From the NCBI RefSeq assembly GCF_024700885.2, contig NZ_CP117016.1: DNA of 64,000 nucleotides; one strand, 5' to 3'. The position numbers and the translations under genes were made by a program. The stretch is from Escherichia coli. Lineage in GTDB: Bacteria > Pseudomonadota > Gammaproteobacteria > Enterobacterales > Enterobacteriaceae. Below, piece by piece: positions 3,768 to 57,809 of the stretch. Position 1 is the first letter of the stretch. Each line of letters opens with the position of its first letter. The notes below the pieces were generated by a model. That model was given only the letters and a program-made list of their open reading frames with translations, did no database searches and was not told where the DNA came from.

Positions 3768-4385
3768 ATGAACCGCTTTGTGGTGGCCGAACCACTGTGG
3801 TGTACAGGATGTAATACCTGTCTCGCTGCCTGTTCGGACGTGCATAAAACGCAAGGTTTACAGCAACACCCGCGCCTGGCCCTGGCGAAGACGTCAACAC
3901 TCACTGCCCCTGTCGTGTGTCATCACTGTGAGGAAGCCCCTTGCCTGCAGGTCTGCCCGGTCAATGCCATCTCCCAGAGGGATGATGCGATCCAACTCAA
4001 CGAAAGCCTCTGTATTGGCTGCAAGCTTTGTGCCGTGGTCTGCCCATTTGGCGCAATCAGCGCTTCAGGAAGCCGTCCGGTGAATGCCCCTGCGCAATAT
4101 GTTTTTCAGGCTGAGGGCTCACTCAAAGACGGCGAAGAAAACGCGCCGACCCAACATGCTTTGCTGCGCTGGGAACCGGGTGTCCAGACCGTCGCGGTGA
4201 AATGCGACCTGTGTGATTTCTTGCCAGAAGGTCCGGCCTGCGTTCGCGCTTGCCCGAATCAGGCGTTACGGCTGATCACCGACGATAGCCTGCAACGTCA
4301 GATGAAAGAAAAACAGCGCATTGCCGCAAGCTGGTTTGCCAATGGCGGGGAGGATCCCCTTTCCCTCACTCAGGAGCAACGCTAA
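3768..4385 (+). CDS. hyfA: Hydrogenase-4 component A, 4Fe-4S ferredoxin-type
   Basis: Translation MNRFVVAEPLWCTGCNTCLAACSDVH... with multiple CxxCxxCxxxCP motifs. Confidence 0.9.
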   Translation: MNRFVVAEPLWCTGCNTCLAACSDVHKTQGLQQHPRLALAKTSTLTAPVVCHHCEEAPCLQVCPVNAISQRDDAIQLNESLCIGCKLCAVVCPFGAISASGSRPVNAPAQYVFQAEGSLKDGEENAPTQHALLRWEPGVQTVAVKCDLCDFLPEGPACVRACPNQALRLITDDSLQRQMKEKQRIAASWFANGGEDPLSLTQEQR

Positions 4386-6403
4386 TGGATGCCCTGCAAT
4401 TATTAACCTGGTCACTGATCCTCTATCTGTTTGCCAGTCTGGCTTCGCTGTTTTTACTCGGTCTGGACAGACTGGCTATTAAGCTTTCCGGCATCACATC
4501 GCTGGTGGGTGGCGTGATTGGCATCATCAGCGGAATTACGCAATTACATGCAGGCGTAACTTTAGTCGCCCGTTTTGCCACGCCTTTTGACTTTGCCGAT
4601 TTAACACTGCGAATGGATAGCCTCTCGGCATTTATGGTGATGGTTATCTCCTTGCTGGTGGTGGTTTGTTCGCTCTATTCATTGACTTATATGCGCGAAT
4701 ACGAGGGTAAAGGCGCGGCGGCGATGGGCTTCTTTATGAATCTTTTCATCGCATCGATGGTTGCCCTGCTGGTGATGGACAACGCTTTTTGGTTCATCGT
4801 GCTGTTTGAAATGATGTCGCTGTCTTCCTGGTTTCTGGTCATTGCCAGGCAGGATAAAACGTCGATCAACGCTGGCATGCTCTACTTTTTTATCGCCCAC
4901 GCCGGATCGGTGCTGATTATGATCGCCTTCTTGCTGATGGGGCGCGAAAGCGGCAGCCTCGATTTTGCCAGTTTCCGCACGCTTTCACTTTCTCCGGGGC
5001 TGGCGTCGGCGGTGTTCCTGCTGGCCTTTTTCGGTTTTGGCGCGAAAGCCGGGATGATGCCGTTGCACAGCTGGTTGCCACGCGCTCACCCTGCCGCACC
5101 ATCGCACGCTTCGGCGTTGATGTCTGGCGTAATGGTCAAAATCGGTATTTTCGGCATCCTGAAAGTAGCGATGGATCTGCTGGCGCAAACGGGTTTGCCG
5201 CTGTGGTGGGGCATTCTGGTGATGGCGATCGGCGCAATCTCCGCGCTCCTGGGCGTGCTGTATGCGCTGGCGGAACAGGATATCAAACGGCTGCTGGCCT
5301 GGAGTACCGTCGAAAACGTCGGCATTATTTTGCTGGCGGTCGGTGTGGCGATGGTCGGTCTGTCACTGCACGACCCGCTGCTCACCGTTGTTGGACTGCT
5401 CGGCGCGCTGTTTCATCTGCTCAACCATGCGCTGTTCAAAGGGCTGCTGTTTCTCGGCGCGGGTGCGATTATTTCGCGTTTGCATACCCACGACATGGAA
5501 AAAATGGGGGCACTGGCGAAACGTATGCCGTGGACAGCCGCAGCATGCCTGATTGGTTGCCTCGCGATATCAGCCATTCCTCCGCTGAATGGTTTTATCA
5601 GCGAATGGTACACCTGGCAGTCGCTGTTCTCACTAAGTCGTGTGGAAGCCGTAGCGCTACAACTTGCGGGTCCTATTGCTATGGTGATGCTGGCAGTCAC
5701 TGGTGGGCTGGCAGTAATGTGCTTCGTCAAAATGTACGGTATTACTTTCTGTGGAGCGCCGCGCAGTACACACGCTGAAGAGGCACAGGAAGTGCCAAAT
5801 ACGATGATCGTCGCCATGCTACTGCTCGCGGCACTCTGCGTATTCATTGCGCTTAGTGCCAGTTGGCTGGCACCGAAGATAATGCACATTGCCCATGCGT
5901 TTACCAATACCCTTCCCGTCACTGTCGCCAGCGGAATAGCACTTGTACCCGGCACGTTTCATACACGGGTCACTCCCTCATTACTGTTGCTGTTACTACT
6001 GGCGATGCCTTTGCTGCCTGGCCTTTACTGGCTGTGGTGTCGTTCGCGCCGCGCAGCGTTTCGTCGCACTGGAGATGCCTGGGCATGCGGCTACGGCTGG
6101 GAACATGCGATGGCCCCGTCAGGCAATGGCGTGATGCAGCCGCTGCGTGTGGTCTTTTGTGCGCTATTTCGTCTACGACAACAGCTCGACCCTACGCTGA
6201 GGCTAAATAAAGGTCTTGCGCATGTCACCGCCAGGGCTCAGAGCACAGAACCCTTCTGGGATGAGCGGGTGATCCGCCCCATCGTGAGCGCCACCCAACG
6301 GCTGGCCAAAGAAATACAGCATCTGCAAAGCGGCGACTTTCGTCTCTATTGCCTGTATGTGGTCGCCGCACTGGTTGTGCTGCTAATCGCTATTGCCGTC
6401 TAA
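4385..6403 (+). CDS. hyfB: Hydrogenase-4 component B, NuoL/antiporter-like membrane subunit
   Basis: 672-aa polytopic membrane protein with WLPRAHPAAPS motif; start overlaps hyfA stop. Confidence 0.9.
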   Translation: MDALQLLTWSLILYLFASLASLFLLGLDRLAIKLSGITSLVGGVIGIISGITQLHAGVTLVARFATPFDFADLTLRMDSLSAFMVMVISLLVVVCSLYSLTYMREYEGKGAAAMGFFMNLFIASMVALLVMDNAFWFIVLFEMMSLSSWFLVIARQDKTSINAGMLYFFIAHAGSVLIMIAFLLMGRESGSLDFASFRTLSLSPGLASAVFLLAFFGFGAKAGMMPLHSWLPRAHPAAPSHASALMSGVMVKIGIFGILKVAMDLLAQTGLPLWWGILVMAIGAISALLGVLYALAEQDIKRLLAWSTVENVGIILLAVGVAMVGLSLHDPLLTVVGLLGALFHLLNHALFKGLLFLGAGAIISRLHTHDMEKMGALAKRMPWTAAACLIGCLAISAIPPLNGFISEWYTWQSLFSLSRVEAVALQLAGPIAMVMLAVTGGLAVMCFVKMYGITFCGAPRSTHAEEAQEVPNTMIVAMLLLAALCVFIALSASWLAPKIMHIAHAFTNTLPVTVASGIALVPGTFHTRVTPSLLLLLLLAMPLLPGLYWLWCRSRRAAFRRTGDAWACGYGWEHAMAPSGNGVMQPLRVVFCALFRLRQQLDPTLRLNKGLAHVTARAQSTEPFWDERVIRPIVSATQRLAKEIQHLQSGDFRLYCLYVVAALVVLLIAIAV

Positions 6404-21452: not shown

Positions 21453-22742
21453 TTATTTGTCTGTTATATCCGCGTCTTCTGCGTCCAGCACCACTTCTTC
21501 AGGGCGCAGCACACTAATCAGTTTGAAGATCAAACTTAAGCCGATACCGACGATGGTCGCCAGCGCCATACCTTTCAGCTCCGCCGCGCCGATGTTTACC
21601 TTCGCGCCACTGACACCGATGATCAAAATCACGGAAGTCAGGATCAGATTCTGTGCTTTGTTGTAATCCACTTTCGATTCGATCAAAACACGAATACCGG
21701 AAGCACCGATGACACCATAAAGCAGCAGCGAAACGCCGCCCATCACCGGCAATGGGATCATCTGGATAGCAGCAGCCAGTTTACCGACGCAGGAAAGCAG
21801 GATAGCGAAAATCGCCGCCCCGCCGATAACCCAGGTACTGTAAACACGGGTGATCGCCATCACGCCAATGTTTTCCCCGTAGGTAGTATTTGGCGTGGAG
21901 CCAAAGAAGCCGGAGATCACGGTCGACAAGCCGTTAGCAAACATCGAACGGTGCAGACCTGGATCGCGCAGCAGATCTTTTTTGACGATATTAGCCGTTA
22001 CCACCAGGTGCCCTACGTGTTCGGCAATAACCACTAACGCCGCTGGCAGAATAGTCAGAATGGCAAACCACTCGAAGCGCGGCGTATAGAGAGTTGGCAG
22101 CGCAAACCAGTGAGCATTAATAATCGGCGTGGTATCGACAATTCCCATTGCGAAAGAGAGCGCGTAGCCCACCAGCACGCCAATTAAAATCGGGATAATT
22201 GCCAGGAAACCACGAAACAGCACGGAACCTAAAACCGTAACCGCCAGCGTGGTAATGGAGATGATGATGGTTTTGGAGTCTGGAGTTTGCCCTTCAGCCG
22301 GGAGTAAACCTGCCATACCGGCAGCTACGCCCGCCAGCTCCAGACCGATGACGGCAACGATTGCGCCCATTGCCGCAGGTGGAAACAGCACGTCCAGCCA
22401 GCCGGTCCCCGCTTTCTTCACGATAAAAGAAACCAGGCAGAACAGCACGCCGCACATAATAAAGCCGCCCAGCGCGACTTCATACCCCAACGGCAACAGT
22501 AACAATACCGGTGAAATAAAGGCAAAGCTGGAACCAAGATAAGCCGGAATTTTCCCTTTACAGATGAAGAGATACAGCAGTGTTCCTATACCGTTAAATA
22601 ACAGTACAGTCGCCGGGTTAATATGAAATAAGACGGGCACCAGGACGGTTGCACCAAACATGGCGAACAAATGTTGCAAACTAAGCGGGATTGTCTGTAA
22701 AAGTGGCGGTCTTTCACTCACCCCGATAGCACGGCGCGTCAT
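21453..22742 (-). CDS. uraA: Uracil:proton symporter UraA
   Basis: Translation [36 protein letters not shown]...; start at internal ATG. Confidence 0.92.
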
Positions 22743-22782
22743 AGTATTATCCTCTGTATTATGTGTTATAGGCGCTTTACTC

Positions 22783-22810
22783 AAAAAAAAGCCGACTCTT
22801 AAAGTCGGCT
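22783..22810 (-). terminator. Rho-independent terminator downstream of upp
   Basis: Hairpin GCCGACT-CTTAA-AGTCGGC followed by a T8 run on the minus strand. Confidence 0.65.
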
Positions 22811-22827
22811 TTAATTATTTTTATTCT

Positions 22828-23454
22828 TTATTTCGTACCAAAGATTTTGTCACCGGCATCGCCGAGGCCCGGAATAATGTATCCGTGCTCGTTCAGTCCC
22901 TGGTCAATCGATGCAGTATACAGTTCGACGTCCGGGTGCGCTTTTTCCAGCGCTGCGATACCTTCTGGCGCAGCTACCAGCACCAGAACTTTGATGCTGC
23001 TGCAGCCCGCTTTTTTCAGCAGGTCGATGGTCGCGATAACGGAACCACCGGTTGCCAGCATTGGGTCAACGATCAGCGCCATACGCTCATCGATGTTAGA
23101 AACCAGTTTCTGGAAGTACGGTACCGGCTCCAGCGTTTCTTCATTACGGTACATACCGACGACGCTGATGCGCGCGCTCGGAACGTTTTCCAGCACACCG
23201 TCCATCATCCCCAGACCCGCACGCAGAATTGGCACAACGGTAATTTTCTTACCTTTGATCTGGTCGATTTCTACCGGGCCGTTCCAGCCTTCGATAGTTA
23301 CTTTTTCCGTTTCGAGGTCGGCGGTCGCTTCGTAAGTCAGCAGGCTACCCACTTCGGAAGCGAGTTCGCGAAAGCGCTTGGTGCTGATATCTTGCTCACG
23401 CATCAGTCCCAGCTTGTGTTTGACGAGTGGGTGTTTGACTTCCACGATCTTCAT
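22828..23454 (-). CDS. upp: Uracil phosphoribosyltransferase Upp
   Basis: Translation [44 protein letters not shown]... Confidence 0.93.
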
Positions 23455-23698
23455 ACTCTTTCTCCTTTGAGGGGCAGCCACAAAAAAAATCGACGGATTA
23501 TACCTCCTTTCTTCAAGGCGGCAATATTATTTTCGTTGACTTTAGTCAAAATGATAACGGTTTGAGATAAAGTTATTTTATATTCAAATGGTTATGGAAG
23601 AAGATTATTCCATCCGAAAACGATCCTTTGCCCTGGTACAAGTATTGTTTTGCCGCGCGCCTGGGGAAAAGACGTACAAAAAGGTTGTGTAAAGCAGT

Positions 23699-23714
23699 CT
23701 CGCAAACGTTTGCT
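23699..23714. promoter_or_regulatory. PurR operator (pur box) of the purMN promoter
   Basis: CTCGCAAACGTTTGCT matches the PurR box core GCAAACGTTTGC, about 65 bp upstream of purM start. Confidence 0.65.
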
Positions 23715-23760
23715 TTCCCTGTTAGAATTGCGCCGAATTTTATTTTTCTACCGCAAGTAA

Positions 23761-24815
<1,055 letters not shown>

Positions 24816-24816
<1 letters not shown>

Positions 24817-47956: not shown

Positions 47957-48501
47957 TATAATCCTCCGGGTAATCTGGTTCCTGCTGCTGCCCCGATTGG
48001 CGCAGGGGTGCTTTGAGTAAACGGACTCCACGTCCCACCAAACATCTGGTACGCACCGTATGCCTTCAGAGGCGCAGTGAGCAATGTTGTTGCTGCTCCC
48101 ACATTCCCCTGTTTACGGGCTGAACTGGCTTCTGCTTTATAGTTGGCAGCCTGAACCTGATAACCGTAAGCCTCGCGTTGCGCGTTATTCACCGTCGTCA
48201 GCGAATCAAGAGCGCCAAACTGGGCAGTGTCGCCAAATATATCCAGCGCGTTACCGGTAGATAAATCGGCGCCGGTCGCCCCCATTGTCGCCGCCTGTGT
48301 ACCAAGCCGCTGTCGGGTCTCTCTGCGCCGTTGCTCAGCTTCAGCGTTACCTCTGTTTATTGCATCATTTGCCTGAGCTGTGGCTATATCTGCGTTCGCT
48401 TCTGCAACCTTCGAGGCATACTTTCCCTGTTGGTACTGGGTGTATGCCTGAATGCCACTCATGGCGAGCATTGCGCCACCAGCAATAACCGGATCGCACA
48501 T
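47956..48501 (-). CDS. Phage virion-associated protein (181 aa)
   Basis: ORF in virion block; Ala/Gln-rich. Confidence 0.4.
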
Positions 48502-48965
48502 TATTTTCTCTCCATGTGAAATCTGTGGAAATTAAGACCAAGAGCACCATAAGGCGCGGCTTCTTCAAGCCTGAATCCAAGCCAGTGCAGCCATGCTTTG
48601 GCAACATGGTTTCGCTCGTCGACGTAGTTTTCCAGGCGTGGATAAACTGCCAGCATCTGCTGCAATACAGGGCGGCAGTGGCGAAGAAATGTCTTCTGAT
48701 ATTTTTCAATACGGCTGGTTCCTACCAGCCAGGGCGTACCATTGCCACCGATCATTGACGCCGGAGATACGCCAAACATGGTTACCAGTTCTCCGTTCGC
48801 AAATCCTGACCAGGCCATAGTCGCAGTGCGAAGACCAACACGCAGCGCATCTTCGGTAGTCATCAGCGATACCGCATACAGTTCGTCAATATCAGCCTGA
48901 CGAACATCCGGAAAAATCATCTGAAGATGCTCTTCGGTAGCGGGAACAATTCGAACATCGATCAT
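48501..48965 (-). CDS. Putative GNAT-family N-acetyltransferase (154 aa)
   Basis: C-terminal NHVAKAWLHWLGF resembles the GNAT acetyl-CoA-binding signature. Confidence 0.35.
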   Translation of the reverse strand: MIDVRIVPATEEHLQMIFPDVRQADIDELYAVSLMTTEDALRVGLRTATMAWSGFANGELVTMFGVSPASMIGGNGTPWLVGTSRIEKYQKTFLRHCRPVLQQMLAVYPRLENYVDERNHVAKAWLHWLGFRLEEAAPYGALGLNFHRFHMERK

Positions 48966-51436
48966 CAGAATCCCCCAACAGTAAGGCGAGGAATAACGGC
49001 AAGAACAGACAGCGGCAACGGGTCAAGCTGACGGATTCTTACACGTCCGTTTTTGCCCCAGTTACTGTCCAGTTTCACTTCTACTTTTCCGGTAGCGTCA
49101 TCAACAGGATCATCGTAGAACTCGAATTCACGCTGTGGATATTCGTACCATTTACCGCCGGGCGTAGTCGCCCAGATGCCGCGGCTGGCATTCACAACCA
49201 GAGTAACGGATGGGATCACCTGTTTTTTGTCCAGCAGCGTTTCCTGTCCGTTAATGTTGATATCCAGTGTTTCGAATTCAGCAGTTATTGGCAGGCCGAT
49301 GTGCACTACAGCCCCCGGTGATTCCAGCGTGACGGCGCCTCCGGAAACTACTTTCTGTGGTTCCACGTTCGCATCAGAGAGGATGTTTACGGTCTGACCT
49401 TCAAGATGAGACAAGCCGCCAAATGCCCGGCGCGCCATCTGCCAGTTCGTGGTGGCCACATTCCTGAGGGATGGCGGGACGTTCCTGTTAGCACGAACCA
49501 CTACAGCGGTGTTGCTGGTTACAGAAATAATGTCGCAACGTAATTCTTTTGACACTTCATCGCCAGTATCAGGATCAGTTCCGGTATAAGGGAACTGTAG
49601 TTGCGCACCGACATCACTACTGGTGAAGTACGCACCGCCAGAAATACTGATTGTATATTCCGCGCGGTAATCCCATTCGCCAGAACCACCAGTGATGGTC
49701 ATCGTTCTGTCAGACGTATTTCTTCCATCATAGCTAAGGCCAGAATCAACAAAGAAAGCATCTTCATCGCTGGTAAATAAACGGCTGGACAGTCTCTCGA
49801 TGTATCTCACTGTTTGCCCGTTAACGGTTCGGTTAACGACGAAATACACCGCATCTTCATTTCCTTCGCTGATACTGCATGTGCTTTCATATTTTCCGGT
49901 ACTGGATTGTGGTGCCCATGCAAAAACCTGCTGATCACGCAAATAGGTCATCACCAGTAATTTACCGTCATCACGAATGCAGAAGGCGCTGGAGTAAGGG
50001 ACAATAGAGAAGCACCAGTCAACAATGCTGTGCTTCTGAAAAAGATGATTGGCAAGGATGGTCAGGTCGTTCCCCTGATAGCCGTCAACATCGAATGAGT
50101 AGGCCAGATCACGGACAACACTGCCTTTCTCCTGGACGAACAGAGCAATATTCGCCACGGCAATTGGTGGGACATTGCTCGAGCCATTTGATCCCTGAGA
50201 GCTGAATGCAAATGATGATGGGGTTAACACTTTGTTCTGGTCGCCGGTGATGACGTACTCACCTCCGGAAGTCAGTGCCACCAGCGAACCGACATCAATC
50301 AGGTGGCGGATCTCATTAACCTGACGCCCGGCATAGGTGTAGATAATTCTGTCGTTATCCTGCGTAGGATTGCTTTTGCCAAAATCCTTATAATCCCCAG
50401 TACGGCTGGCCCAGATAGTCTGAGGGAACGCAGTCGATGCGGCGAAGTAAAGACGTTGTTGATAATAAACAACAGTGCCAGGATAACCATTAACACTGTT
50501 CCAGGCATATTTAGCCCATTTATAGCTGGCATTATCCTCGCCAACGACCTGCGAAGGGATATAGGAAATCACCTCGGCAGTTGCAGTAGTGCCGTTTACA
50601 GCAGTGATACGGGCAATGCCAAACCCACTGTGCAGATACTCCCACTCAATGCCAGTATTATCATCACCGGATCCGCCCCAGCCATCCCATGATGTGCCTT
50701 CTGTATGCGAAGGGCGCAAAGTACCAGTTTTGCCTGCTGTAACGGCGCGATAGTAGTTACTGTCTGCACGGCGAATATCACCAATCGACGTACTCTTACT
50801 GGTTTCCCATACCGGCACTGAATCCACTGCTGGCTGTTCCAGATAGAACAATTTGCCTACCTGCTCCGCGCCAAAAATAGAGGCGCTTGCCGTTAACGTA
50901 ATTGTCCCGGTGCTGGCGCTGGCATAAACCGTCACTGACTCGTCAATATTGATATCTTCAAATGGCCCGTTCTTCGTTACCACATCAACCAGTTGCCAGT
51001 TGTCATGCGCATAGCGGCGCAACTCTTTCGGCGGGTATGCCGGATGAACCAGCGTAAGCACGTCTGCGCTTTGCGTGAATTTAATTCTGAACAGATCGGC
51101 TTCAGTATATGGCGTGGCAATTTCATAAATAACATTGCTGCTGTTCAGCACCAACGCACCATCTTTGATAACGCGCATGTACTGGTGTCCGAACTCCAGA
51201 GCATAAGTCTGAACCGTCGAGAACTGGAACGGGATCAGGCGGCATTTCCGATTTGGGTATTTGGCGGCACCGACAAAACGCGTACCAGGTCGATTCTCAA
51301 CGCCGCCATACTGCCGCACGATAAAGTTATCGCACTTGCGCAATGCCACCTGGTACTTCGCCATGTCGATACGACCGTACAACGACGGTCCAATCTCACC
51401 ACCGGCAAAGCTGGGCTGGATCCAACTGATAGCCAT
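48965..51436 (-). CDS. Tail protein (823 aa), probable tail tube/hub component
   Basis: Large beta-rich ORF downstream of head genes and upstream of ejection proteins. Confidence 0.5.
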   Translation of the reverse strand: MAISWIQPSFAGGEIGPSLYGRIDMAKYQVALRKCDNFIVRQYGGVENRPGTRFVGAAKYPNRKCRLIPFQFSTVQTYALEFGHQYMRVIKDGALVLNSSNVIYEIATPYTEADLFRIKFTQSADVLTLVHPAYPPKELRRYAHDNWQLVDVVTKNGPFEDINIDESVTVYASASTGTITLTASASIFGAEQVGKLFYLEQPAVDSVPVWETSKSTSIGDIRRADSNYYRAVTAGKTGTLRPSHTEGTSWDGWGGSGDDNTGIEWEYLHSGFGIARITAVNGTTATAEVISYIPSQVVGEDNASYKWAKYAWNSVNGYPGTVVYYQQRLYFAASTAFPQTIWASRTGDYKDFGKSNPTQDNDRIIYTYAGRQVNEIRHLIDVGSLVALTSGGEYVITGDQNKVLTPSSFAFSSQGSNGSSNVPPIAVANIALFVQEKGSVVRDLAYSFDVDGYQGNDLTILANHLFQKHSIVDWCFSIVPYSSAFCIRDDGKLLVMTYLRDQQVFAWAPQSSTGKYESTCSISEGNEDAVYFVVNRTVNGQTVRYIERLSSRLFTSDEDAFFVDSGLSYDGRNTSDRTMTITGGSGEWDYRAEYTISISGGAYFTSSDVGAQLQFPYTGTDPDTGDEVSKELRCDIISVTSNTAVVVRANRNVPPSLRNVATTNWQMARRAFGGLSHLEGQTVNILSDANVEPQKVVSGGAVTLESPGAVVHIGLPITAEFETLDININGQETLLDKKQVIPSVTLVVNASRGIWATTPGGKWYEYPQREFEFYDDPVDDATGKVEVKLDSNWGKNGRVRIRQLDPLPLSVLAVIPRLTVGGF

Positions 51437-54952: not shown

Positions 54953-55245
54953 TCCTGTTCACTGGCCTCTTTGGCCATCTTCAAATACTGTTCAGGGCAA
55001 TGCGCCATAACGCGCTGAAACAGTTCCAGCGCCAGATTGCGTTGCCCCTCATTAAATGCCATTGCCATAGCATCCATCGGAGAGATAGCGGAAAACACCC
55101 GGCCTTTCTCCAGCACCGACCAGACAACGCGACGCCCCTGTTCACTGCTCATGACAAAGCGAATGTCATCAATTTCACGCTGTGCCATGTCACGTTGCTT
55201 ACGGGCGTTTTCTTCTTTCAGTTGATCGTCTTCGTAATCTGTCAT
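54949..55245 (-). CDS. Small phage head-assembly protein (98 aa)
   Basis: ORF with start overlapping the portal stop. Confidence 0.4.
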   Translation of the reverse strand: MTDYEDDQLKEENARKQRDMAQREIDDIRFVMSSEQGRRVVWSVLEKGRVFSAISPMDAMAMAFNEGQRNLALELFQRVMAHCPEQYLKMAKEASEQE

Positions 55246-56921
55246 TGTGATTGCCCACCCTGACCACTAACTGCATTCGCCATAGCTGACAAAACACTCG
55301 GATCCGAAGTTTTAGCTTCGCTTAGCGTCTTGGCACCCTGTGCCGCCGCCATCCCCATCGCCATCATTTGTTGCTGCTGTTGTTGCTGTGCCCGTTGCTG
55401 GCGAGCCTGCTCAACCTGTTCCTGCGGAACAATGACGGTTGGAGACACTCCGGACATATCAGCGAATGCATCGATCGCCTGATCAACGTTGAGTTTGTCG
55501 AGAGCTTCTGGTTTCGCTTGCGCAAGTTGACCAATAAAGTTGACCGTGGATGCCAGACTGGACAGGCCGATAGACTTCTGCGCCTGAGCCATGACGGAAA
55601 TGTATTCGACCTTCAGGGGCATACCTTCCATCGCGTCAGGCGGTGGCGGCAGCATGTTTTTACGCACCATCATCGAGAAAGCGCGGTCAATGAGAGGATT
55701 AAGACATTCGTCGTTCAGACGCTCCAGAACCGGCCCCAACATCAGAAGTTTTTCTTCTTTCATTTCGATCACCGCTTCAACAGGCATCGAGCGGGTATTG
55801 ATGTTCTGCAACATCATGAACAGATCGACAAAGTAGGCGCTGTTAATGATTTGACGAGTGTCCTGAATGTCTGCCACCAAATCTGCTGTACTGGGGTTAA
55901 CCAGATAAGCAGGCCTGAAACCATCCTGACCAGTAATCTGATCGATATACGTGATGTCGCCAGGAAGAAGGGAGGCACGCTGATTCTTGAGGGAAATCGG
56001 AGCAACCATCGGCGGATTGGTGGCTTTATCAATCAACTGCGACTTGCGCTTCTGGAGAAGCTGCAATGCCTTAACAGGTCCAAGCGCCAGCATACCCGGG
56101 CATGATGATCCATAAACATCTTCGCCGTTAACTTCCCAGCGCGGAGCCATAATTGGAAACTCATCGAATCCGGACTCACGCAACAACTTGTCGTTATCGC
56201 CACCAACCTCGTAATAAACCGATTTGAATGGCTTGTTCTTGCTATCCAGCTTCGATGTATCGCGGTCAATGTTCGGGTAAACCGAATGCATCACTTCAAT
56301 CCACTTCTCGTAGGTGCCGCTTTCCCACATGCTTTTTACGGATTCGCTGACGTTATTTAGCCCGAACTCCTGAACAAGCTGACGAACAGTCATAGAGAAC
56401 TTGCGAAAACAGGTGTCAACACTGCCACGAGGTGAGTTAGCCAGGTAGTAACTTCCTATCGGGAATGGCATTGTACGAATGATGTCCTCGTCATCCTCCA
56501 GCACCGCCATTGCGCCAGTGCTGTATGTGCCGAGGCTTCCGTATAACTGCGGCAGCGACTGATAGAGATTCGACTTATTGAACATATCGTTCATGCGGTT
56601 CTGCACCGCCTCAAGCCACAACTTAACAGGGCCATAATCCATCATTTCAGGATCTGGCGTAGCCAGGCGAAACCACGGACGCGCTGGGCTTGTGATGCCT
56701 GACATCATGCCGCTGGCGAGAGTGCGCGCCGCCATAGTCCCGGTCGAATCAATAATGCGTGTATTGCGTCGATCGTTACGGTTGACCTCAGAAGTCAGAA
56801 AGCGGGAACCACGCGGGTTGATGTAATCACTCAACTCGCGCCAGTGCGGCTCGAACGACTGACGCTCGCTTTCAAGTTGTGCGAACTGTTTGTTCAATCG
56901 CTCTTTAGTTGTTTCCGCCAT
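55242..56921 (-). CDS. Portal protein (559 aa)
   Basis: Size, first large gene downstream of terminase, GGAG RBS. Confidence 0.7.
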   Translation of the reverse strand: MAETTKERLNKQFAQLESERQSFEPHWRELSDYINPRGSRFLTSEVNRNDRRNTRIIDSTGTMAARTLASGMMSGITSPARPWFRLATPDPEMMDYGPVKLWLEAVQNRMNDMFNKSNLYQSLPQLYGSLGTYSTGAMAVLEDDEDIIRTMPFPIGSYYLANSPRGSVDTCFRKFSMTVRQLVQEFGLNNVSESVKSMWESGTYEKWIEVMHSVYPNIDRDTSKLDSKNKPFKSVYYEVGGDNDKLLRESGFDEFPIMAPRWEVNGEDVYGSSCPGMLALGPVKALQLLQKRKSQLIDKATNPPMVAPISLKNQRASLLPGDITYIDQITGQDGFRPAYLVNPSTADLVADIQDTRQIINSAYFVDLFMMLQNINTRSMPVEAVIEMKEEKLLMLGPVLERLNDECLNPLIDRAFSMMVRKNMLPPPPDAMEGMPLKVEYISVMAQAQKSIGLSSLASTVNFIGQLAQAKPEALDKLNVDQAIDAFADMSGVSPTVIVPQEQVEQARQQRAQQQQQQQMMAMGMAAAQGAKTLSEAKTSDPSVLSAMANAVSGQGGQSQ

Positions 56922-56935
56922 TTCAATGACTCCGG

Positions 56936-57142
56936 TTACTGACCAAGCAGCGTTTTACCGCTGGTATTAGCGGTTGATGTGTCGCCCTGAGAACCGGTAA
57001 GCAGCGTAGAACTACGACCAGCAGCAGCGCGACGGCGACGAGTTTCTTCGTCGCGGGCATCAACAACGGCGGCATCCTGCTCCTGTGGTGCTGCCTGAAC
57101 TTCTGGTGTTGCAGGCACTGATGGTGAGCTACCCATGCACAT
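56936..57142 (-). CDS. Small hypothetical protein (68 aa) upstream of portal
   Basis: ORF ending at the portal RBS; Arg-rich centre; could be non-coding. Confidence 0.25.
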   Translation of the reverse strand: MCMGSSPSVPATPEVQAAPQEQDAAVVDARDEETRRRRAAAGRSSTLLTGSQGDTSTANTSGKTLLGQ

Positions 57143-57168
57143 ATCAATGACTCCGTACGCAATTAAAT

Positions 57169-57248
57169 TATTACCAATTTAACCACATATGATTTATTTA
57201 TCGTAGATAGTTGACATTTAACGCACAAATTATTACCTTTAAGGTAAC
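57169..57248 (+). promoter_or_regulatory. Conserved cassette copy B: TATTACC, AACCACATATG, perfect -35 TTGACA, 17-bp palindrome ATTACCTTTAAGGTAAC
   Basis: Same block order as copy A at 39946-40013; TTGACA at 57211-57216 with the palindrome where a -10 would lie. Confidence 0.5.
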
Positions 57249-57568
57249 TAAAGAGTTCATTCCGGTTACTAACCTGACTGGCTTGTCGTTAAATTGAACA
57301 GGTGGAGTGAGCTTTTATTTTGAGCAGTACGGCGTATGGCACATGCGCCGATAGCGGTCTGGATACGTTTAAGGGGCACCCTCCCTTGCTCGGGCAAACG
57401 AACCAGGTAGCCGGAATGTGCAAGTCGAGCGGTTTTATTCCGCGCACGGGGATTCACCATCCCGGCTATTCGGTGTGACGCCTCGGAATAGACGAGGGTA
57501 CAACGATGAGAGCATTTATGGAGCTGCGACAAAGTGTGGCGCATTAACAGGCTAAGTGCTCTCAGCGT

Positions 57569-57645
57569 TGTGGCATTAGCTCAGCTGGACAGAGCAACCG
57601 CCTTCTAAGCGGTTGGTCGCAGGTTCGAATCCTGCATGCCACGCC
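57569..57645 (+). tRNA. tRNA-Arg (anticodon UCU), phage-borne
   Basis: Cloverleaf by hand: acceptor GTGGCAT/ATGCCAC, D-arm GCTC/GAGC, anticodon loop CTTCTAA, T-arm GCAGG-TTCGAAT-CCTGC, encoded CCA; resembles E. coli argU. Confidence 0.85.
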
Positions 57646-57688
57646 AGAATCACGCCTAAGGACCGTGATGCCAGAAGTTCCAGGTGCT

Positions 57689-57731
57689 TGGCGGTGATGG
57701 TTTCCCTTGAAGGACTATCACCGCCCTTTTT
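57689..57731 (+). terminator. Rho-independent terminator after tRNA-Arg
   Basis: GGCGGTGAT-N18-ATCACCGCC followed by CTTTTTT. Confidence 0.6.
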
Positions 57732-57809
57732 TACAGCAGGACGCCATTGCGATGACTTCATGCTGTAAACCCGTACAGCCACGGAAGGCATAACTCATTG
57801 CTTCCAGTT

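Follow-up and report, generated by a model that had tools for sequence, protein, structure and literature searches.

A structured RNA module upstream of a phage tRNA-Arg(UCU) gene in an Escherichia coli prophage, and its occurrence in unrelated temperate phages

Ornate, strongly covarying noncoding RNAs are known from phages and prophages: GOLLD and ROOL, which measure 500-800 nt and are found mainly in Firmicutes and related hosts, often lie beside tRNA genes, and ribozymes beside phage tRNAs, such as the hepatitis delta virus (HDV)-like theta ribozymes, are another familiar theme. The put RNA of phage HK022 is about 70 nt long with two stems (PMC9378689), and a put-like RNA was suggested in 2025 for LLS, a phage without the N gene that is related to some of those considered below (PMC12315714). 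Here we describe the RNA locus of a phiV10/epsilon15-like prophage in a 64,000-nt stretch of the E. coli contig NZ_CP117016.1 (hereafter, the window), in which a tRNA-Arg(UCU) gene is preceded on the same strand by a GC-rich leader of some 300 bp. The central part of this leader, which we call module A, is a conserved RNA of ~170 nt that recurs in very different phages, both with and without a tRNA.

Comparison of more than 170 unique copies from IMG/VR and from phage and genome collections divides the leader into three modules, with the pseudoknotted multi-helix RNA of module A standing between two long hairpins, B0 on its 5′ side and B1 on its 3′ side. Covariation was measured on alignment A2, which holds 58 diverged copies of module A. 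Standard pairs fill 98.1% of its pair cells, a share that drops to 24-50% if the 3′ partners are displaced by 1-3 columns, and 13 pairs (117 cells) show changes on both sides, with the observed values reached by none of 500 shuffles. The invariant G·U pairs indicate that the functional strand is the plus strand. Long unpaired stretches of module A are nearly invariant, and its sequence is conserved more strongly than what comes after it. The covariance model R1, with 163 model positions and 29 modelled pairs plus the pseudoknot, scores 132 bits on the module A of the window, the only copy in its entire length. An alternative kissing pair may form between GCACAU (57,339-57,344) and AUGUGC (57,416-57,421), both nearly invariant. 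Searches of the leader with Rfam 15 (4227 models) yielded nothing at gathering thresholds across the window and nothing at E ≤ 10 in 57,100-57,950, and the homologous region of phage mEp460 had no match at E ≤ 1. Neither exact conserved strings nor keywords led to a description of module A in the searchable literature, although subscription journals might hold one. Its function aside, module A appears to constitute a previously undescribed RNA family.

The first-pass annotation had called the leader non-coding in all frames, with a decayed protein-coding gene as the result that would count against it. Read literally, the statement is incorrect, as there is a 91-aa open reading frame (ORF) with an ATG start on the minus strand (57,269-57,544) and there are ORFs of 52 and 45 aa on the plus strand; its conclusion stands, as none of the frames is conserved among the 58 homologues. 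A decayed or small gene on the minus strand could be defended by pointing to the 91-aa ORF, to mEp460 gp37 and a phiV10 ORF that are annotated over homologous DNA, and to the presence of at least one stop-free minus-strand frame across module A in 48 of the 58 copies. However, the spacing of conserved blocks falls into all three classes modulo 3 (25/8/25 and 16/28/14 copies), and the open frame shifts against the invariant block from one copy to the next, indicating that the ORFs annotated over module A DNA are spurious. Moreover, substitutions are compensatory for plus-strand pairs, including the invariant G·U pairs, and the translated peptide is of low complexity and rich in arginine. The frame analysis thus rejects a decayed gene, and we find a minus-strand gene of any kind barely credible.

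The core of the locus, at about 57,329-57,569, was detected at ~70-81% identity in very different phages by sensitive BLAST searches of phage genomes with 57,240-57,569 as a query. Matches include lambdoid phages (cdtI, mEp460, 2H10, Stx2c and Stx2a phages), P1, P7, D6, SJ46 and RCS47, phages of Enterobacter, Salmonella and Klebsiella, and two phages deposited as Stenotrophomonas phages; most of the records are unannotated over the core, and a few carry a “hypothetical protein” or another feature. Among complete E. coli genomes, 1832 of 5426 contain the core, at 1912 chromosomal and 550 plasmid places, and none of the matches listed has an annotated feature on it in this species. An exact 19-mer of the core also occurs in genomes of Citrobacter, Klebsiella, Kosakonia, Phytobacter, Buttiauxella, Pseudescherichia and Ca. 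Erwinia. Module A is an autonomous mobile module that passes between unrelated phages, accompanied by a tRNA or not. Promoters on its 5′ side and terminators on its 3′ side are far commoner than in background sequence: a strong promoter match lies within 190 nt on the 5′ side in 97 of 173 unique copies (3% of control windows), and a terminator-like site within 800 nt on the 3′ side in 162 of 173 (44% of control windows). The next long ORF is co-oriented in 60 of 82 copies. Each phage has a single copy, and none is located in the operon of the early rightward promoter (PR). In some copies small ORFs are inserted between modules A and B, directly following A in L028, L104 and L117.

The fold of hairpin B1 is conserved as well. 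The B1 stem, of the general form ACAAC-N-GAGAGCA ... UGCUCUC-N-GUUGU, spans 13-14 bp in all 30 unique variants despite many compensatory versions (GAGAGCA/UGCUCUC, AAGAGCA/UGCUCUU, GAUGGCU/AGUCAUC, AAGGCG/CGCCGUU and others), and its duplex energy is -15.9 kcal/mol for cognate strands versus -11.4 for non-cognate ones. In the window, the last 2 nt of B1 overlap the first 2 nt of the tRNA. The 3′ strand of B0, GGAGUGAGCUUUU, resembles the B consensus GGAGUGCGCUUYC, and the three G·U pairs of B0 favor an RNA of the plus strand; epsilon15 keeps the hairpin, and its record has an RNase III site annotated there, although on the opposite strand. We also looked for a single-stranded boxA (CGCUCUUA or UGCUCUUU). 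Core strings of this kind (UGCUCUUU or CGCUCUUU) are common in the 3′ strand of B, where the window reads UGCUCUCA, but they are base-paired, and compensatory variants replace them in some copies, such as L071. A boxA/nut interpretation of hairpin B is weakened by this pairing and covariation.

The motifs ACAAC and GUUGU(GG) are found at every module boundary, namely between A and B, between B and the tRNA, at the 3′ end of the closed domains described below, and around leader terminators (57,500-57,504 and 57,567-57,573 in the window, and many other loci). Being complementary, they may form mutually exclusive pairings or, alternatively, may represent recombination joints. In two IMG/VR copies (L203 and L218), a B-type 3′ strand and a short hairpin, GUUGUGAA...UUCACAAC, lie directly 5′ of module A, so that the order of modules is not fixed.

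Mutually exclusive pairings, ACAAC with GUUGU or GUUGUGG with CCACAAC, could also be expected of a ligand-sensing or catalytic RNA, in which module A would act either as a riboswitch-like aptamer over the pairings of B1 and the tRNA domain, or as a self-cleaving ribozyme participating in transcript or tRNA processing. The compact multi-helix fold, the pseudoknot and the invariant joining regions are in line with this possibility. On the other hand, no riboswitch or ribozyme family in Rfam matches, the nearest terminator is ~190 nt past module A, unlike in known expression platforms, and the sequence does not allow a ligand or a cleavage site to be deduced. We consider such a function quite unlikely.

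What stands 3′ of module B was recorded for the 173 unique copies. In 53 copies, the GUUGUGG that ends B contains the start of a genuine tRNA, in every case tRNA-Arg(UCU); one further copy has a tRNA-Ile. In 67 copies, the tRNA is replaced by a domain of 52-286 nt, closed by an exact 7-nt stem (GUUGUGN...NCACAAC), and 52 copies have neither. Most of the closed domains inspected contain a hairpin of ~5 bp beside the 3′ strand, and a few display a canonical T-arm with a GGUUCGAWUCC T-loop (for example, GCCGG-UUCGAUU-CCGGC followed by ACCA), suggesting that a minority of them are tRNA-like. This term is ours, as the closed domains are called as tRNAs neither by ARAGORN nor by the tRNA model of Rfam.

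These arrangements bear on the view, held in the first-pass annotation, that the 300 bp are the leader of the tRNA. If the leader merely served the tRNA, as a long 5′ extension aiding the folding, processing or expression of tRNA-Arg(UCU), one could account for its position immediately 5′ of the tRNA in the same orientation and for the near-constant identity of the tRNA that follows. Yet about 70% of the unique copies have no tRNA 3′ of module A, the module is better conserved than the sequence after it, and in the P1 type it comes after a tRNA and not before it: P1 has the order trnI-module A-ban, with tRNA-Ile ending 14 nt upstream of the conserved block that holds A, and ban next. Still other copies are found at the early leftward promoter (PL) of lambdoid phages. 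The leader is therefore better described as an independent mobile module, and a role confined to the tRNA seems very unlikely. The stretch of P1 (L003) between module A and ban also includes, at 2728-2775, an upstream ORF of 14 codons, MPIISDIQHAWVEC, together with a Shine-Dalgarno sequence; the stop codon of this ORF overlaps the ban start (UAAUG), suggesting translational coupling.

In the window, the locus belongs to a region 97-98% identical to phiV10, TL-2011b, vB_EcoP_ZX5 and other Uetakevirus (epsilon15-like) phages and 100% identical to a prophage of E. coli MLI114. Its G+C content is 0.545-0.565 in the leader versus 0.365-0.45 in the flanks, in agreement with the GC-rich character noted before. 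The earlier placement of the unit between the large terminase and portal genes is correct, but it is not an insertion within the late operon: leader, tRNA and the next ORF are all on the plus strand and the terminase and portal genes all on the minus strand, so that the RNA unit forms a divergently transcribed island (Table 1).

Table 1. Coordinates of the RNA unit and neighboring features in the window
Feature	Position	Strand	Details	Basis
Module A	57330-57497	+	conserved structured RNA	alignment A2, covariance model R1
Module A, H1	57330-57338 with 57342-57350	+		
Module A, long-range pairing	57354-57356 with 57419-57421	+	3 bp	
Module A, H2	57357-57361 with 57404-57408	+	encloses variable hairpin H3	
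Module A, H4a	57424-57426 with 57464-57466	+	variable hairpin between H4a and H4b	
Module A, H4b	57449-57452 with 57460-57463	+		
Module A, pseudoknot	57455-57458 with 57472-57475	+	H4b loop CACC with downstream GGUG	
Module A, H6	57481-57485 with 57493-57497	+	hairpin	
Hairpin B0	57251-57316	+	long stem; outer 13 bp 57251-57263 with 57304-57316, three G·U pairs	minimum free energy fold
Hairpin B1	57500-57571	+	ACAAC-GAUGAGAGCA ... UGCUCUC-AGC-GUUGU	stem kept in 30 variants
tRNA-Arg(UCU)	57570-57646	+	CCA encoded	ARAGORN, Rfam tRNA model, annotation in relatives
Promoter, sigma-70 type	57211-57239	+	-35 TTGACA 57211-57216, 17-nt spacer, -10 TACCTT 57234-57239	sequence, conservation
Operator palindrome	57233-57247		TTACCTTTAAGGTAA; overlaps -10 element	annotated equivalent in epsilon15
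Conserved hairpin	57649-57669	+	AUCACG-CCUAAGGAC-CGUGAU, no U-tract	sequence; does not qualify as terminator
Intrinsic terminator T1	57690-57731	+	14-bp stem 57690-57725 and CTTTTTT (T6 run); loop with UUUCCCUUGAAGG	terminator scan
Intrinsic terminator T2	57811-57834	+	GCCCGG-UUCG-CCGGGC 57811-57826 and ATTTTTTT (T7 run)	terminator scan
115-aa gene, phrog_3163	57943-58290	+	co-oriented, in variable cargo slot; context, not part of RNA unit	PHROGs
Portal gene	55242-56921	-		
gp3 gene	56936-57142	-		
Large terminase gene	58376-59851	-		
Small terminase gene	59848-60522	-		

Transcription of the unit apparently begins at a promoter with the -35 hexamer TTGACA, which the first-pass annotation had already pointed out. 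Its -10 element is weak and a consensus scanner does not report it; we accept the promoter because both hexamers and the 17-nt spacing are preserved, with a different spacer sequence, in epsilon15 and in two diverged IMG/VR copies (L112 and L075). TTGACA/TACCTT is also the most common best promoter 5′ of module A. A same-strand structured RNA between this conserved promoter and the tRNA agrees with the earlier proposal of a structured leader, for which co-transcription with the tRNA is the natural reading. The palindrome overlapping the -10 element has an equivalent in epsilon15 (NC_004775, 2931-2947), annotated as “protein_bind: repressor, lysogeny”, and in L112 and L075 it also stands right before module A; the RNA unit is, therefore, probably silent in the lysogen.

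At the 3′ end, T1 and T2 each have a G+C-rich stem-loop followed directly by a U-run, as intrinsic terminators do. The two tandem terminators originally assigned to 57,249-57,731 are thus only half right, in that T1 lies inside this range and T2 outside it, while the hairpin that directly follows the tRNA lacks a U-tract. This hairpin recurs 3′ of the tRNA or of the closed domain in L002, L007, L008, L046, L051, L063, L105 and L112, and a variant, AUCACG-UAGCCAG-CGUGGU, in L010, L034, L042, L099, L100 and L116; in several lineages, the succession of conserved hairpin and terminator comes after the tRNA and after the closed domain alike. In epsilon15, T2 is kept and directly abuts the next gene. 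A YCCUUG motif (UUCCUUG, CUCCUUGG or CCCUUG), which resembles the anti-Shine-Dalgarno end of 16S rRNA, is seen both in the apical loop of H3 in copies of A2 and in the T1 loop (57,703-57,712). A 57-aa ORF on the minus strand (57,718-57,891), a PGAP hypothetical protein matching phrog_4647 (E = 1.5e-19), overlaps T2 and the T-run of T1, and its start region is not conserved in epsilon15.

The tRNA itself is an ordinary phage tRNA for the rare AGA codon. Records of several phages and that of E. coli MLI114 already annotate it as tRNA-Arg. It is the only tRNA that ARAGORN finds in the window (anticodon TCT at position 35), and it matches Rfam RF00005 over the full model (1-71) with 71.7 bits against a gathering score of 29 (E = 1e-13). 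The 3′ end reads ...ATGCCAC-G-CCA; the clean cloverleaf and the encoded CCA are as first described. In megablast searches, 64 Synechococcus phage records matched the query in part with 80-95% identity, presumably through the tRNA; this is unexpectedly close for such distant phages.

The suggestion that the tRNA supports translation of AGA-rich cargo genes holds as far as codon usage is concerned. AGA and AGG together account for 0-7 per 1000 codons in host ORFs of the window and 0-2 in head genes, as against mostly 10-37 in the left part of the prophage (33-51 kb), comprising AT-rich cargo, tailspike and injection proteins. A service to lysogenic-conversion cargo genes becomes less plausible because the operator over the promoter would keep the RNA unit off in the lysogen; late tail and injection genes of the lytic phase would be likelier beneficiaries. 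The left part of the prophage (~32,900-51,400) is rich in AUA codons as well, host genes filling about 1-32 kb, and three low-GC ORFs (35,644-36,768, 36,819-39,893 and 39,966-40,346; G+C 0.39-0.44) look like horizontally acquired cargo.

For this succession of elements (promoter/operator, B0, module A, B1, tRNA-Arg(UCU), small hairpin, T1, T2) we favor, tentatively and with rather less than even confidence, the explanation that the locus is a repressor-controlled, early-expressed “stable RNA” unit of the phiV10/epsilon15-like prophage, from which host RNases release module A and the tRNA, and that module A acts on a conserved host component. Upon induction or infection, the entire unit would be transcribed as one precursor. 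RNase P would cut at the 5′ end of the tRNA, or elsewhere at the closed domain replacing it, and a double-strand-specific RNase, with RNase III as a candidate, would cut within the B hairpins, freeing the mature tRNA-Arg(UCU) and a discrete module A RNA of about 170-240 nt. The tRNA would then provide decoding capacity for AGA-rich tail, injection and cargo genes, while module A might act in trans, its nearly invariant unpaired stretches binding a component that is conserved across the Enterobacteriaceae.

We prefer this explanation on account of the autonomy and mobility of module A, its ties to genuine tRNAs and processing-type structures, the terminators that close the unit, and its dispensability. 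The latter is illustrated by epsilon15 (L004), in which 2549-2654 is a deletion derivative with respect to 57,330-57,731 of the window: the first ~60 nt of module A are joined to the 3′ half of T1 via a shared UUCCCUUGAUGCU repeat, and the remainder of A, B1 and the tRNA are gone. The unit is therefore accessory, as would be expected of a moron-like RNA. Several points weigh on the other side. Cleavage by RNase III and RNase P is read from the architecture of the locus, and the tRNA-like character of the closed domains is our own reading of a minority of them, on which the Rfam tRNA model fails. In P1 and in L028, L104 and L117, module A looks like a 5′ untranslated region and not like a free RNA. 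The terminators found in lambdoid phages between PL and all early-left genes fit antitermination in cis equally well.

The lambdoid copies deserve separate consideration in this respect. In mEp460, cdtI, Stx2a_1447, 1720a-02 and related IMG/VR copies, cI and a terminator are followed by operators and a promoter at the PL position, module A, B, a closed domain and a terminator; another B then precedes the first early-left gene, which is of the yfdP/yfdQ type. No N-like family was recognized among the first early-left ORFs of mEp460, and no N is annotated in mEp460, cdtI or LLS. (The antirepressor region of mEp460, L005, contains matches to the Rfam C4 antisense RNA, 83.6 bits, and isrK, 67 bits, at 206-293 and 318-394 on the minus strand.) Module A, alone or together with the B hairpins, might be a cis-acting, put-like processive antiterminator, allowing early transcription to proceed through T1, T2 and the leader terminators into cargo or early-left genes. 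In lambdoid phages, module A starts from a few to ~40 nt after the inferred transcription start site of the operator-flanked promoter, just past cI and its terminator, and at least one intrinsic terminator precedes the first early-left ORF, with no obvious promoter between. The absence of N from these carriers, the put-like RNA proposed for the related LLS (PMC12315714), the enrichment of terminators 3′ of module A, the predominance of co-oriented ORFs and the presence of small ORFs or ban directly 3′ of the module in some copies would all be consistent with such a role, and a conserved machine, RNA polymerase for instance, would be a fitting partner for near-invariant unpaired sequence.

Against antitermination, module A differs from put in having several helices and a pseudoknot in ~170 nt, and neither R1 nor the B-type motif finds anything in HK022 (22,000-30,000). 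The PL leader of LLS (L226, PQ299149; 31,740-32,300, minus strand) runs from a terminator-like hairpin through B, a closed domain and a terminator to another B. With its two leader terminators, it has the B/closed-domain scaffold but no module A; the multi-terminator architecture of this leader is conserved and is itself undescribed. Epsilon15 has lost most of module A but keeps T2 directly before the cargo gene, and there is a single copy per phage, with none in the PR operon. Lambdoid phages can in general form plaques without their early-left genes, so that no argument from necessity can be made for antitermination by module A. LLS and the epsilon15 deletion together indicate that module A is optional, dispensable and cargo-like, and the former weakens the notion that it supplies the antitermination missing from N-less lambdoid phages. 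We regard a put-like function as possible but doubtful, and the presence in LLS of the scaffold without module A as more in keeping with an optional cargo module of a stable RNA unit.

A bolder version of the trans-acting explanation draws in part on the neighborhood of the locus. The slot that follows the RNA unit is variable: in place of the 115-aa gene of the window, Klebsiella phage ST512-KPC3phi13.3 (L002) has a gene for a DUF2829-domain protein after the tRNA unit (4197-4718), Tyrion has three small genes, and SPN9TCW and PAT1 have others. Tad2, the anti-Thoeris sponge, belongs to the DUF2829 domain family. Assignment of the window ORF to DUF2829/Tad2 was rejected, as it has no significant Pfam domain and only the Klebsiella relative has a DUF2829 domain. 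Since module A stands before this variable cargo slot, moves between unrelated phages and is dispensable for growth, epsilon15 lacking it, it might represent a new class of trans-acting phage “RNA moron”, a protein-free structured RNA made early and in bulk to neutralize or hijack a conserved host or defense component; it could, for example, be a decoy or sponge for a defense nuclease or an immune signaling molecule. We think this unlikely, if worth bearing in mind.

If the assignment of module A to a family of its own is correct, one of the commonest structured RNAs of E. coli prophages has been left unannotated, although a third of the complete genomes of this species contain it, as do Shiga-toxin phages and the classic phage P1, and the wrong-strand “hypothetical proteins” that mis-annotate the region in several records could be corrected with a covariance model such as R1. 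Release of a trans-acting early RNA would mean that temperate phages possess an accessory function at the RNA level, while an RNA-only antiterminator would explain how the early-left operon of N-less lambdoid phages operates, a question left open by the 2025 LLS paper; no phage-host system has been studied better, and either finding would be new to it.

In comparison with known systems, module A does not appear to belong to any of the families for which membership could be evaluated, including all Rfam families, put, nut and GOLLD/ROOL. It resembles putL and putR of HK022 as a structured phage RNA with which a repressor-controlled early operon begins in N-less phages, with terminators downstream and no evident partner protein gene, and the put-like placement just past an early promoter, with terminators further on, is seen in the lambdoid copies and, more loosely, in the window, in which module A follows the -10 element at a distance of ~90 nt. 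The put RNA makes terminators permissive by binding the beta′ zinc-binding domain of RNA polymerase. Module A differs from put in sequence and covariance model, in its five or more helices and its presence in one copy per phage instead of two, as well as in occurring far from promoters in P1 and being absent from the N-less LLS. The lambda-type nut system, consisting of boxA, boxB and N, encodes N downstream, and such a gene is absent from the annotation of mEp460 and cdtI. Like GOLLD and ROOL, module A is ornate, strongly covarying, phage-borne and often located beside a tRNA; unlike them, it is only ~170 nt long, is confined to phages of Enterobacterales and does not match their Rfam models. 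The c4 RNA of P1/P7 and the CI RNA of P4 (Rfam C4 clan) are likewise temperate-phage RNAs lying inside a longer early transcript, from which the tRNA-processing enzyme RNase P excises them, as may be the case for module A; however, they are antisense RNAs of ~80 nt with known complementary targets, the fold of module A is different, and processing by RNase P is here a prediction. The unit also recalls rrn-type stable RNA operons in its strong promoter, untranslated structured RNA between long stems, embedded tRNA, tandem terminators and boxA-core strings, although it has no rRNA, its boxA-like string is paired and is lost by covariation in L071, and RNase III is only a candidate for the cleavage. 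Finally, in contrast to ordinary argU-like phage tRNA-Arg(UCU) genes, the tRNA occupies a fixed slot in a larger conserved RNA array, a slot that elsewhere holds a closed domain.

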